Below are positions 9,001 to 12,000 of a stretch of DNA of 36,735 bases, one piece after another. Location: IMG/VR virus record IMGVR_UViG_3300045988_080861, positions 1 through 36,735 of that record; one strand, given 5' to 3'. Source of the stretch: a virus. Lineage: Duplodnaviria > Heunggongvirae > Uroviricota > Caudoviricetes. A program made the position numbers. Each line of letters opens with the position of its first letter. Position 1 is the first letter of the stretch.

Positions 9001-12000
9001 CTTATACAGGCATTCGGTACAGAGCGTGGCGTTAAGTGGTCAGACGAAGCGCGACTGGCTCTCGAATGGAAAGCGCGATGGGGAGACAGGGCGGCATGAG
9101 ACGACAGCGACGAAGTTTCACCGACATAATCTGCGAAAACTGCAAATACCTTCCAACGAAACGCTCCAGAAATAAACGCAAGCCAATCCCCAAAGAATCT
9201 GACGTAAAAACCTTCAATTACACGGCTCACCTGTGGGATATCCGGTGGCTAAGACATCGTGCGAGGAATACAAGGGGATTGACGCGATGATTTATCCGGG
9301 GCTATATTCCTCACACGCCAGCAAAATCTGGCGTCGGGATTGGCGTCCCGGATAGAAACCGCGACAGAGACACGCCGCGAGCGTGTTTTTTATTGTCGTA
9401 TGCACGCGCACATCTGAATTATGGTGGGCTGTGTGGGGGCGGAGAGATCCGCGCCGGTCGGTTTCCCGGTTACGCCAACCCTGCACAGTTCACCGCCAGA
9501 CGATTGGCGTCGTCGGTGGTGAGTCATTTAGAAACCACCGGAGAGCGTCACCATGACAACTCAAATTTCTGTCGAAACTCTTTCCCCGATCACCCACAAC
9601 CAGATCCCCGTTATTACAACTGAACTTCTTGCGCAGTTATACGGAACAAAAATCAAAAACATTTCGGATAACTTTCTTAACAACACGACGCGATTCGTGG
9701 TAGGGAAGCATTACTTTAAAATTGAAAGGAACGAATTACGCGAGTTTAAGAACAGACCCGAAACAATCGGGTTAGTTGGTAAAAATGCCCGCTCCCTCAT
9801 CCTCTGGACAGAACGCGGAGCAGCCCGTCACGCCAAAATGCTCGAAACCGATCAGGCGTGGGAAGTGTTCGAAAAACTGGAAGACTGCTATTTCAGCCAG
9901 TGCGAGAAAAATACTGGCAAACAAGAGAAGAAGCCCAACGGGCTTTCCGCAAAAGAAACAGACAGCCTTGTTTGGCTGTGGGATTATGCCAACCGCTCAC
10001 AGGCATTGTTCCGTGAGTTGTATCCCGCATTAAAACTGATTCAGTCTGGCTATTCCGGCATATGCCACGACTACGGCTATGAGTTCTCGTATATCATCGG
10101 GAGGGCGAGGGGCGTTTTAATTAATCACACGCGGGATATAGATATTTATGAGCCTGACGGGCCGACGAACCTTCTGGCATGGGAAAGGCTTAAGAACAAA
10201 GAGTTGCCGCCTTCACTGCATCGCTACTGACAATTGACAACTTAACAAACCCAGCTTCGGCTGGGTTTTTTATTGCTGAATTTTCAATATGAGAGGACAT
10301 GACAATGAATGAGCTGATAAATAGCAACGTCATCAAAATGACAAGCATTGAAATCGCTGAGTTGGTGGGAAGCCAACACGGTAATGTCAGAATATCAATA
10401 GAACGTCTGGCAAAGCGTGGGGTGATTCAACTTCCTCCAATGCAAAAAGTTGAAAATAAACAAACAATTAGCCCTAACAAATTCACAAGCGTGTATATAT
10501 TCGAAGGCGAACAAGGTAAGCGAGACAGCATTATTGTCGTCGCTCAGTTGTCGCCGGAATTCACCGCTCGTCTTGTTGACCGTTGGCGAGAACTCGAAGG
10601 GGCAACCGCGAAAATACCACAAACCTTTTCTGAGGCATTGCGCCTTGCGGCCGACCTTGAAGACCAGAAGGCTGAACTGGAGAAACAGCTTGCTCTCGCA
10701 GCACCTAAAGTTGAGTTTGCCGATCGCGTTGGCGAGGCCAGCGGAATTTTGATTGGAAACTTTGCAAAGGTTGTTGGAATTGGTCCAAACAAACTGTTTG
10801 CGTGGATGCGCGATCACAAAATCCTTATTGCTTCAGGTTCCCGGCGCAATGTGCCAATGCAGGAATATATGGATCGCGGCTATTTCACAGTGAAAGAAAC
10901 AGCGGTCAACACAAATCACGGAATACAGATATCGTTCACCACAAAAATCACCGGGCGTGGTCAACAGTGGCTGACCAGAAAGCTGCTCGATAACGGAATG
11001 CTGAAAGTAACAGGGGAGGCTGCTTAATGGCTAACCTACGCAAAGAAGCGCGCGGCAGAGAATGTCAGGTACGTATTTACGGCGTATGCAATGGCAATCC
11101 TGAAACTACAGTTCTGGCACATTACCGGATGGCTGGAATTTGCGGAACGGGAATGAAACCTGACGACCTGATCGGCGCATGGGCTTGTAGTGACTGCCAC
11201 GCGGAGATCGACCGACGCACAAGGATTCTCGACAACAAAGACGCCAGACTTTACCACCTCGAAGGCGTGATCAGGACGCAGGCGATACTGCTGAAGGAGG
11301 GGAAGATTAAGTCATGAACGAATATCAGTTTGTGCTTCCATACCCGCCGTCGGTGAACACCTACTGGCGAAGACGGGGAAGCCAATACTACATCAGCGAT
11401 AAAGGCCAGAAATACCGAAAAGACGTTCAGCAAATAATCCGCCAACTCAAGTTAGACATTTTCACCAAATCAAGACTCCGCATCAAAGTCATCGCAGACG
11501 TTCCAGACTCCCGCCGCCGCGACCTCGACAACATCCTGAAAGGTTTCCTCGACTCCCTTATCCACGCCGGATTTGCGGAAGACGACGAGCAATTCGATGA
11601 CATTCGCGTAATTCGTGGTGTGAAAGTACCAGGCGGACGGCTTGGAATAAAAATCACCGAACTGGAGAACGTATGAACAAAGCATTCGAACGATATATGC
11701 GCCAGCGTTATGGCAATCGCTATGACCTGACGCGAGATGTTGAAGGTTTCTACTGTAGTGAAATTGTGAAACGAATGTTTGAAGTTTGGTGTCATTGCAA
11801 AGGATGGGAGGTCTGATGCGGCTAACTCCAGTATTCAGCATGGTTAACTTCATTAATGACGCGCACTTTCGCCGCGTATGGAGACACCCGAAGAAAACCA
11901 TCAACTCTAGCCAGAAAGCATGGGTTCATTACATGTTACAGGTATGGGGCAAGGTTAATACCGGAGATTGCTCTCCAGGTGGTGCAATTAACGTTATCGG

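Follow-up and report, generated by a model that had tools for sequence, protein, structure and literature searches.

Genes of the antirepressor family belong to the Bro network of domain-swapping proteins, in which ORF6N, P22_AR_N, P22_AR_C, ANT and Phage_pRha domains are combined (PMC10111431, where the network is credited to Iyer, Koonin and Aravind 2002). The same paper takes C4/isrK profiles as marks of immunity RNAs. One described arrangement is the isrK-orf45-anrP locus of Gifsy-1, and AnrP expression induces this prophage (Hershko-Shalev et al. 2016, PMC4825925). Another described arrangement is the immI region (mnt, arc, sar, ant) of P22-like phages, for example UAB_Phi20. The window, which is the whole stretch of 36,735 nt analysed here and represents a lambda-like prophage of E. 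coli, carries a locus resembling each of them, and both loci end in the same 359-bp segment. We consider it likely that they are two separate, self-contained antirepressor cassettes with a common 3' module (P22_AR_C plus terminator) that arose by modular gene assembly.

The segment occupies 9915-10273 (copy A) and 31595-31953 (copy B) and is the only long direct repeat within the window. The copies align over 359 bp without gaps, on the same strand (plus) and in the same reading frame. Copy A comprises the coding part for the Pfam domain P22_AR_C, the stop codon and the intrinsic terminator. The preliminary description had reported a direct repeat with its terminator, and the alignment bears this out. 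The limits proposed there (9913-10272 and 31597-31951) are displaced by a few nucleotides, and the offset between the copies is 21,680 bp and not the 21,684 bp that they imply. It had also called the copies nearly identical, which does not hold: overall nucleotide identity is only 88.3% (317/359) and it is uneven along the length. Three differences were found in the first 150 bp (9915-10064, 98%), where the longest exact run covers 92 bp (9973-10064), and 39 in the remaining 209 bp (10065-10273, 81%). This second part includes the terminator hairpin (24/25 identical) and, directly behind the stop codon, 18 bp of only 44% identity. The 100-bp flanks on each side of the repeat are 21-24% identical, which is the random level. 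Pfam supplied the domain assignment that the preliminary description had left to be made for the common C-terminal region, namely P22_AR_C. A homologue search with this domain returned mostly fragments, and one protein had a KilA-N + P22_AR_C architecture. PDB sequence searches with the gene A and Ant proteins gave marginal chance matches only (syncytin, E ≥ 0.006), and none of six proteins had an NCBIfam match.

Copy A forms the 3' end of gene A (9553-10230, plus strand, 225 aa), whose coordinates were correct in the preliminary description. Its product contains ORF6N (73.1 bits) and P22_AR_C (85.1 bits), both above the Pfam cut-offs, has annotated homologues in Stx phages and matches phrog_377 'anti-repressor Ant' over the full length (E = 4.5e-83). 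Gifsy-1 AnrP matches residues 1-118 at 92% identity, and the DNA from 9279 to 9902 is about 90% identical to the isrK-orf45-anrP locus. This similarity stops at 9902, 12 nt before the start of the P22-type similarity, and residues 122-225 are about 83% identical at the protein level to P22-like Ant. As judged from these comparisons, gene A is chimeric, its head being of the AnrP type and its tail of the P22 Ant type, with the domain joint at codon 122 (GKQEKK). An AlphaFold2 model of the protein (32-row alignment) was too poor for a fold search (mean pLDDT 46, pTM 0.34). The gene ends in an intrinsic terminator at 10247-10273 (terminator scan; hairpin −15.1 kcal/mol, z = −5.3).

The region upstream of gene A has the order a1b1 leader, IsrK RNA and C4-type RNA, all above the Rfam gathering scores and all on the plus strand. 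A sigma-70-like promoter (TTGACG-18-TATATT, 9279-9308, 10/12 in a consensus scan) aligns with the Gifsy-1 DNA just 5' of isrK and is the counterpart of the isrK promoter, as a consensus-level match only. It is followed by a c4-a1b1 element at 9302-9354 (RF03163, 50.8 bits, gathering 46.7), where the C4-type antisense RNA has its upstream targets, and by an IsrK-type small RNA at 9315-9391 (RF01394, 78 bits, gathering 50). The IsrK-type stretch is near-identical to Gifsy-1 isrK and has its own terminator hairpin and T-run (9369-9391). The C4-type antisense or immunity RNA lies at 9417-9500 (RF01695, 64.2 bits, gathering 45), with loops a' GGUUUC (9461-9466) and b' CGCCAA (9473-9478). Compared with Gifsy-1, its stem shows compensatory changes and its a' loop co-varies with the targets. 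Downstream target sites were read directly at 9504-9545 (plus strand), with b2 UUGGCG (9504-9509) and a2 GAAACC (9531-9536) complementary to the loops CGCCAA and GGUUUC and adjoining the Shine-Dalgarno sequence GGAGAG of gene A (9540-9545). They would be functional C4 targets at the ribosome-binding site of gene A. Moreover, translation revealed a 33-codon upstream ORF (9421-9522, plus strand) homologous to Gifsy-1 orf45, whose start corresponds to the AUG at +107 that PMC4825925 reports for orf45. It stops at 9522, 30 nt before the ATG of gene A at 9553, and does not overlap it. Since translational coupling to gene A is thus lacking, unlike in Gifsy-1, the control logic may differ. The regulators travel with the head: isrK/C4 also precede the ORF6N-type gene at five further loci, and they are absent where an Arc/P22_AR_N head sits at the nin site.

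Copy B forms the 3' end of ant in a P22 immI-like cassette (30236-31958) between the tail genes L and K. The cassette is a moron: it has no counterpart in the prophage of strain N32, where L and K are adjacent, and it is bounded by a terminator, with promoters supported at consensus level only. Its first gene, divergent from ant (30252-30626, minus strand), encodes a Mnt-like ribbon-helix-helix repressor of 124 aa (Pfam Arc, 30.8 bits); over the N-terminal 43 residues, this protein shares 33% identity with the Mnt of a P22-like phage (E = 2e-10). Promoter-like sites that diverge and overlap, corresponding to Pmnt and Pant, were located at 30664-30711 by consensus scan and direct reading. They are flanked by CCCCAC(G/A)GTG operator-like repeats, again at consensus level only. 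Next comes a putative small Arc-like repressor of 57 aa 5' of ant (30744-30917, plus strand). It scores 19.1 bits for Pfam Arc, just under the cut-off of 20.4, and matches the PHROG Arc-like repressor (E = 5.5e-6) and Arc itself by BLASTP (E = 4e-5); a homologue is labelled 'Arc family' by PGAP. Across the ribosome-binding site of ant lies a candidate sar-like antisense RNA (30918-30986, minus strand; fold −28.1 kcal/mol, z = −4.9). It has a leftward promoter at 31021-30993 (10/12 with extended TG), and a T-run comes after its hairpin at 30960-30926. A permissive Rfam search (E up to 5) gave no sar match in the L-K cassette. In alignment with the sar of UAB_Phi20, which Rfam confirms, the hairpin shows compensatory changes in six pairs.

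The ant gene (30990-31910, plus strand), for which ATG 30990 is the more likely start, encodes a P22-type antirepressor of 306 aa with P22_AR_N (152 bits, Pfam cut-off 30.7) and P22_AR_C (85.9 bits). It is 56% identical over the full 306 aa to Ant of a P22-like phage (E = 9e-115). Its intrinsic terminator (31928-31953, plus strand; terminator scan, −16 kcal/mol, z = −4.0) lies directly 5' of the ribosome-binding site and start codon of K, and the cassette also gives K a new 5' end.

On the preferred reading, the 359-bp piece occurs twice because antirepressor-family genes of the Bro network are built from swappable modules. The first cassette (9279-10273, nin region) would be the E. coli counterpart of Gifsy-1 isrK-orf45-anrP, matching also the Rfam C4 antisense-RNA family, with the order promoter, IsrK/a1b1 leader, C4-like RNA, target sites at the ribosome-binding site, ORF6N::P22_AR_C gene and terminator. 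The second would be an immI-like moron between L and K, with the Mnt-like and Arc-like genes, sar-like RNA, P22_AR_N::P22_AR_C ant and terminator. The boundary at codon 122 would be a recurrent joint, where different heads with their own regulators are attached to the same tail. In DEC5E, an ORF6N::P22_AR_C gene has received a cassette of the L-K type that is essentially identical to the one in STEC799, with its left junction at a 10-bp microhomology (GGATTATGCC) and its right junction inside the common module. A CI-type repressor is encoded at 3239-3940 (minus strand; Pfam HTH_3 and Peptidase_S24) and is the presumed target. Either antirepressor, once de-repressed, would bind and inactivate it, and the outcome would be RecA-independent induction, under RNA control for the first cassette and under Arc/Mnt/sar control for the second.

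For the history of the two copies, a collection of 5,426 complete E. coli genomes was used. As it does not include the genome of the window, the strain history is inferred from relatives. In 400 E. coli records, copy A is conserved at 99% identity or more. Copy B has a best match of only 95.5% among the 5,426 genomes and, according to variable-site tables, is a recombinant: 31595-31741 is of the A type and 31745-31953 of the classic L-K ant type, with the crossover at 31742-31744 (10061-10064 in copy A). Against the LZHX12 allele, copy B has no differences in its last 195 bp and 31 in its first 164 bp. Thus exchange did take place. Other genomes have different breakpoints and internal patches in the module. 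Before this exchange the copies would have been about 82% identical, as in phage 2851; homologous exchange put nin-type sequence into the first 147-150 bp of copy B and so raised the overall identity to 88%. The sister prophage of N32 is 99.7% identical to the window left of L and 95.8% right of K, and its empty site reads L-TAA-ATCCC-ATG-K, with 5 bp between the L stop and the K start. The L-cassette-K arrangement is 96.9% identical in strain Res13. Both cassettes would have been united when an N32-like left arm joined a cassette-bearing right arm at the L/K boundary.

The preliminary description had instead read the repeat as the trace of recent domain exchange, which as exchange or gene conversion between the resident copies would leave a prophage made unstable by a 21.7-kb deletion. 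We regard this as unlikely. The module is discrete, homologous exchange inside it is documented by the crossover in copy B, and recombination within the module clearly happens in nature; to that extent the earlier statement stands. The copies are direct and in frame, and resident copy A differs from the A-like tract of copy B at only 3 of 150 positions, so that in-situ conversion followed by a few later mutations may have occurred. However, copy A is 100% identical in the sister prophage of N32, which lacks copy B, and the A-like tract of copy B is nearer to A-type alleles elsewhere, such as that of VT2-Sakai, from which it has one difference, unique to copy B. The donor was probably an A-type allele of some other prophage and not necessarily resident copy A.

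As for the deletion, the interval from one copy to the other does include the Q-like, lysis, head and tail genes as far as L, as had been pointed out, and the repeats are suited to pairing, being in direct orientation with an exact run of 92 bp that exceeds the minimal pairing length of a few tens of bp. By recombination between them, 21,680 bp would be lost and the gene that remains would be an in-frame hybrid. On the other side, the predicted junction (ORF6N head, module, K), searched for with a chimeric query of which a match had to cover at least 80%, was present in 0 of the 5,426 complete E. coli genomes, and the two-copy layout persists in phage 2851, a deposited complete phage genome, and in the STEC799 prophage. 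Genes labelled 'P22AR C-terminal' that adjoin K (LZHX12) were considered as deletion products and proved to be frameshifted ordinary ant genes. We therefore treat the deletion as a formal possibility only; it would be possible but rare.

A history without recombination, with old paralogues kept similar by purifying selection on the conserved domain alone, is very improbable. The domain is indeed conserved at about 83-87% (protein) even in Salmonella P22-like phages, and the codons that differ between the copies (14 synonymously, 12 non-synonymously) would suit such a history. Selection on the domain does not fit the abrupt switch from 3 differences in 150 bp to 39 in 209 bp, the uneven differences of copy B from LZHX12, the varied breakpoints and patches in other genomes, or the sharing of a non-coding terminator by both copies. 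A collapsed or mis-joined repeat in the assembly, for which nothing specific speaks, can be dismissed, since both contexts are contiguous in independent complete genomes (the nin region at 100% in N32, L-cassette-K in Res13) and the copies differ at 42 positions.

The ORF at 10305-11027 (plus strand) was confirmed, and its former label of Rha-type was not. Its product has a strong Pfam match to ANT/KilAC (113.9 bits) behind a weak Rha-like N-terminus that scores 26.4 bits for Phage_pRha, below the cut-off of 29.9. It is 89% identical to Roi of VT2-Sakai, which itself has the same sub-threshold Phage_pRha score. By this identity the gene is a Roi homologue. Like roi in HK022, H-19B and 933W, it is placed after an antirepressor gene in the nin region; compared with P22 Rha, its Rha domain remains sub-threshold in Pfam. 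The activity known for Roi and Rha is a block of lytic growth in hosts deficient in IHF, and not antirepression. All three genes once counted as antirepressor-like carry domains of the antirepressor network. The Roi-like gene is no established antirepressor.

A wider role for the module can be proposed, although we find it doubtful. P22_AR_C and its terminator could serve as a portable homologous docking segment by which alternative sensor units are moved from the nin region to the L-K site or the reverse, and both units together could act as a dual-input, RecA-independent induction switch. In one unit, IsrK/C4 RNAs would control an ORF6N head; in the other, Mnt, Arc and sar would place a P22_AR_N head under both protein and RNA control. 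In a prophage with both units, these two differently wired inputs would meet at a single effector domain and a single repressor target. The junction in DEC5E and the many breakpoints are compatible with docking and are no proof of selection for it.

The repeat itself is ordinary, already documented phage mosaicism of the kind known as domain shuffling. It leaves current understanding unchanged, and its main value lies in annotation and interpretation. Identical 3' ends of phage 'antirepressor' genes mean module sharing at a fixed joint and not necessarily a recent local duplication. For annotation, gene A may be taken as a hybrid of AnrP and P22 Ant that is subject to RNA control of the IsrK/C4 type, and the tail-cluster gene as part of a complete immI-like cassette. 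Because of the module sharing, the hybrid gene A and the immI-like cassette, polylysogenic E. coli, including carriers of Stx phages, contain several copies of the module, at which recombination between prophages and cross-induction could occur.

The two-copy layout is also found in the Stx2c phage 2851 (FM180578) and the STEC799 Stx2c prophage, where the copies are 82.3% and 88.6% identical, respectively. Like the window, both have the order antB (ORF6N::P22_AR_C), roi, Q, lysis, head, tail, L, Arc genes, ant and K, with the module as a direct repeat about 27.3 kb apart, compared with 21,680 bp here. Unlike the window, they have other head genes and carry stx, and the breakpoint in copy B is the window's own.

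The cassette at L-K resembles P22 immI in order and orientation, with a divergent Mnt-like gene, a putative Arc-like gene, a candidate antisense-RNA hairpin and promoter at the ant start and an Ant with P22_AR_N and P22_AR_C, and both lie within a late or tail gene region. It differs in its setting in a lambda-like siphovirus, between L and K. Moreover, its Mnt-like protein has 124 aa instead of 83 and an unrelated C-terminus, its Arc-like protein falls below the Pfam cut-off, its sar-like RNA is too diverged for the Rfam model and its Ant is 56% identical overall.

The nin cassette shares with Gifsy-1 isrK-orf45-anrP the a1b1, isrK and C4-like elements in the same order, with DNA about 90% and the ORF6N head 92% identical, and a C4 loop complementary to targets beside the ribosome-binding site. 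Its tail is P22_AR_C in place of the AnrP tail. While orf45 has 45 codons and overlaps the ATG, the window ORF has 33 and ends 30 nt upstream. The Gifsy-1 locus is downstream of Q, whereas this one precedes Q and belongs to the nin region. The a'/a1/a2 specificity is GGUGAU/AUCACC in Gifsy-1 and GGUUUC/GAAACC here. Set against the Bro network as outlined in PMC10111431, all three genes combine the listed domains, swapped at a fixed joint, and nothing essential differs from that outline; in the window, the swap can be traced at the nucleotide level, with its breakpoints.

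The E. coli lambda-like prophage in the window carries one long direct repeat. Copy A (9915-10273, plus strand) overlaps the end of the gene at 9553-10230, here called gene A, and copy B (31595-31953, plus strand) overlaps the end of ant in the tail cluster (30990-31910). Both are 359 bp long; they are 21,680 bp apart, on the same strand and in the same reading frame of their respective genes. An ungapped comparison gave 317 identical positions out of 359 (88.3%), while the 100-bp flanks on each side were at the random level of 21-24%. The repeat is real and far beyond chance. 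Identity is strongly uneven along its length: the initial 150 bp have 3 mismatches and include a 92-bp exact run (9973-10064), and the final 209 bp have 39. The 18 bp 3' of the stop codon are unrelated (44%), and the terminator hairpin is 24/25 identical. The preliminary description had placed the limits 2-4 bp away and called the copies nearly identical; exact alignment retains the direct repeat, but that wording overstated its identity.

Because Pfam places P22_AR_C in both gene A (ORF6N + P22_AR_C) and ant (P22_AR_N + P22_AR_C), the segment common to the copies is the P22_AR_C domain plus an intrinsic terminator; we call the shared coding part, stop codon, and terminator the module. Both terminators were detected by a terminator scan and fold stably. 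A third gene (10305-11027) had been described as Rha-type and antirepressor-like. Its Phage_pRha match scores 26.4 bits, under the curated cut-off of 29.9, and the Rha label is weak; it has an ANT/KilAC domain, and its product is 89% identical to that of a VT2-Sakai gene annotated as Roi. All three genes do have domains of one network, but the Roi-like product is not an established antirepressor. Searches of solved structures and NCBIfam families gave no match to these proteins, and the AlphaFold model of gene A has low confidence (pLDDT 46). The prophage also encodes a CI-type repressor with an S24 self-cleavage domain (3239-3940) and a Q-like antiterminator (11816-12430), and the lysis, head, and tail genes up to L lie between the copies. 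Two 47-nt direct repeats (5813-5953; 94 bp apart, 83% identical), probably origin iterons, are inside a 298-aa ORF (5488-6384) that has no Pfam match and precedes a DnaC/IstB-like gene. Two HNH endonuclease genes of the early region, at 4673-5485 between cII and the replication genes and at 7598-8209 between the replication genes and ninB, may be homing-type insertions.

By sequence comparison, gene A is a chimera of AnrP and P22 Ant with a known regulatory leader. Directly upstream of it, Rfam placed c4-a1b1 (9302-9354), isrK (9315-9391), and the C4 antisense RNA (9417-9500), all above gathering score, and a promoter-like site is at 9279-9308. Over 9279-9902, the window shares about 90% identity with the isrK-orf45-anrP locus of Gifsy-1, where the same three RNA elements occur, and residues 1-118 of the protein are 92% identical to AnrP. 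The Gifsy-1 similarity ends at 9902; from 9915 (residue 122, GKQEKK), the protein is about 83% identical to the Ant C-terminus of P22-like Salmonella phages. The Gifsy-1 read-through transcript is translationally silent; there, the short IsrK RNA switches on orf45 and then anrP via translational coupling, and AnrP expression induces the prophage (PMC4825925). The C4 loops in the window, GGUUUC and CGCCAA, are complementary to GAAACC/UUGGCG both upstream (9355, 9341) and downstream (9531, 9504), where the target set adjoins the Shine-Dalgarno sequence of gene A. The a' loop of C4 and both of its targets co-vary (GGUUUC/GAAACC in the window vs GGUGAU/AUCACC in Gifsy-1), as would be expected of a functional antisense pair that has a specificity of its own. 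Across the leader (9302-9545), the a' loop and target sets of the window and Gifsy-1 look as if they were distinct in specificity. While the Gifsy-1 orf45 (34076-34210 of its locus, minus strand) has 45 codons and overlaps the ATG of anrP, the homologue in the window (9421-9522) is frameshifted by a 2-nt difference, has 33 codons, and stops 30 nt before the gene A start. Therefore, translational coupling as described for Gifsy-1 may not operate here.

The tail-cluster ant appears to be part of a complete immI-like cassette and moron (30236-31958), between the tail genes L and K. Its protein is 56% identical to P22-like Ant over the full length. The cassette also encodes a divergent 124-aa Arc-fold protein whose N-terminus is 33% identical to Mnt, and a 57-aa Arc-like protein with a borderline Arc match, and it has overlapping divergent promoter-like sites. 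A putative sar-like antisense RNA (30918-31021, minus strand) crosses the ant ribosome-binding site, with a strong leftward extended -10 promoter within the ant start and a predicted hairpin and T-run about 65-70 nt downstream. The Rfam sar model had no match in the window; the hairpin aligns with the Rfam-recognised sar of the P22-like phage UAB_Phi20, with compensatory changes in 6 pairs. Directly after the L stop, where the leftward Mnt-like gene also ends, a GC-rich hairpin with T-runs (30244-30261) may terminate transcription in both directions within the late operon.

Many genomes have an annotated Arc/ant cassette between L and K, and in many others the two genes are neighbours. One of the latter, the E. 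coli N32 prophage, shares 99.7% identity with 9088-12640 and 15930-30235 of the window and has L, 5 bp, and then K, without the cassette. Rightward of the cassette, the identity falls to 95.8%; therefore, the cassette probably came with the K-I-J arm, via a crossover at the L/K boundary. Compared with N32 (34949-34978 of its locus), 30236-31983 of the window replaces the 5-bp spacer and the first ~7 codons of K; the ribosome-binding site and the initial codons of K are thus new and come from the cassette (K starts with MLYSNILAHARR in the window vs MTETESAILAHARR in N32).

Recent domain exchange had been proposed from the repeat, and copy B is indeed a recombinant. Variable-site tables show it to be A-type from 9915 to 10061-10064 (positions on copy A) and of the classic L-K ant type beyond; it has no difference from the LZHX12 allele in the last 195 bp and 31 before. 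Its best match among 5,426 genomes is at most 95.5%. An exchange between these two copies is not demonstrated. The copy A allele is very common: 400 records, with many O157:H7 strains among them, match it at 99% identity or more, and N32, a prophage without copy B, matches it at 100%. Moreover, the A-type tract of copy B has 3 differences from the resident copy A vs 1, unique to copy B, from A-type alleles elsewhere (e.g., VT2-Sakai); therefore, the resident copy is not the best donor candidate.

Breakpoints differ in other genomes: in HCP5S3_I4 and 2013C-3342, an A-type module contains a classic-type patch, and the junctions in STEC799 and DEC5E are different again. Thus, across the E. coli prophage population, the module often undergoes exchange. 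In its haplotype, the 3' untranslated spacer goes with the downstream neighbour, Roi or K. As read from its gene order, O55:H7 DEC5E is direct evidence of natural recombination between nin and L-K copies. Its nin region has NinE, isrK/C4, the ORF6N head, and the first ~77 nt of the module, followed by an Arc-Arc-ant cassette essentially identical to the STEC799 L-K cassette and then Roi/KilAC. The left junction (position 3067 of the DEC5E locus) is a 10-bp microhomology, GGATTATGCC, found inside both module copies (9981, 31661) and also where L-K cassettes begin on the left (30237 in the window); a further occurrence at 18027 looks like chance. The right junction is within the shared module. 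RM10410 has at the nin position an ant of the Arc/P22_AR_N type with a wholly A-type tail and no isrK/C4. Therefore, the swapped unit is regulators plus head, while the tail, terminator, and downstream gene remain. The nin region of 2013C-3342 (840-5171 of its locus) contains three tandem ORF6N-type genes, two of them with a P22_AR_C tail, giving module direct repeats 2.6 kb apart with a truncated KilAC gene between; the second and third have Rfam sRNA-Xcc1 matches upstream instead of C4. Frameshifted or truncated antirepressor genes are common in STEC and other genomes (VT2-Sakai, 2001-2773; loci L015, 5083-5415, L009, 1893-2815, and L002, 3388-4316), which suggests frequent decay or counter-selection.

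The repeat had also been seen as a substrate for deletion. If the copies crossed over, 21,680 bp would be lost with Roi, Q, the lysis and head genes, the tail genes to L, Mnt, Arc, and the ant head, and K would come after an in-frame ORF6N::P22_AR_C hybrid. The span is thus as proposed, but in none of 5,426 complete E. coli genomes did a megablast search with the deletion junction find a place covering at least 80% of the query. RecA-dependent recombination requires only some tens of exactly matching bp, and we take the 92-bp exact run to be a formal substrate; ~360 bp at 88% is presumably a poor one, suppressed further by mismatch repair. Genes beside K annotated as "P22AR C-terminal domain" were considered as deletion products and rejected, being frameshifted ordinary ant genes. 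Three genomes have the reciprocal junction (P22_AR_N head, module, Roi), but as nin-located cassettes of the DEC5E/RM10410 kind, not as duplication products. The same direct two-copy layout is found in the STEC799 Stx2c prophage (copies 88.6% identical) and in Stx2c phage 2851, a deposited complete phage genome (82.3% identical, 27.3 kb apart); such a layout therefore fits with an intact phage genome.

This analysis adds the exact limits, identity profile, and module identity of the repeat, the AnrP/P22-Ant chimera with its RNA leader, the immI-like cassette with the corresponding empty site, the breakpoint within copy B, and the negative search for a deletion product. The pieces themselves have precedents. 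PHROG already has a family with the ORF6N::P22_AR_C architecture, and Stx phage annotations include it. In its account of the "Bro network", whose members are phage regulators that swap domains, PMC10111431 (citing Iyer et al. 2002) lists ORF6N, P22_AR_N, P22_AR_C, ANT, and Phage_pRha, with C4 and isrK profiles as markers of the associated immunity RNAs. Since these precedents and the annotated L-K cassette cover the pieces, the repeat was correctly seen but is an instance of something ordinary and already documented.
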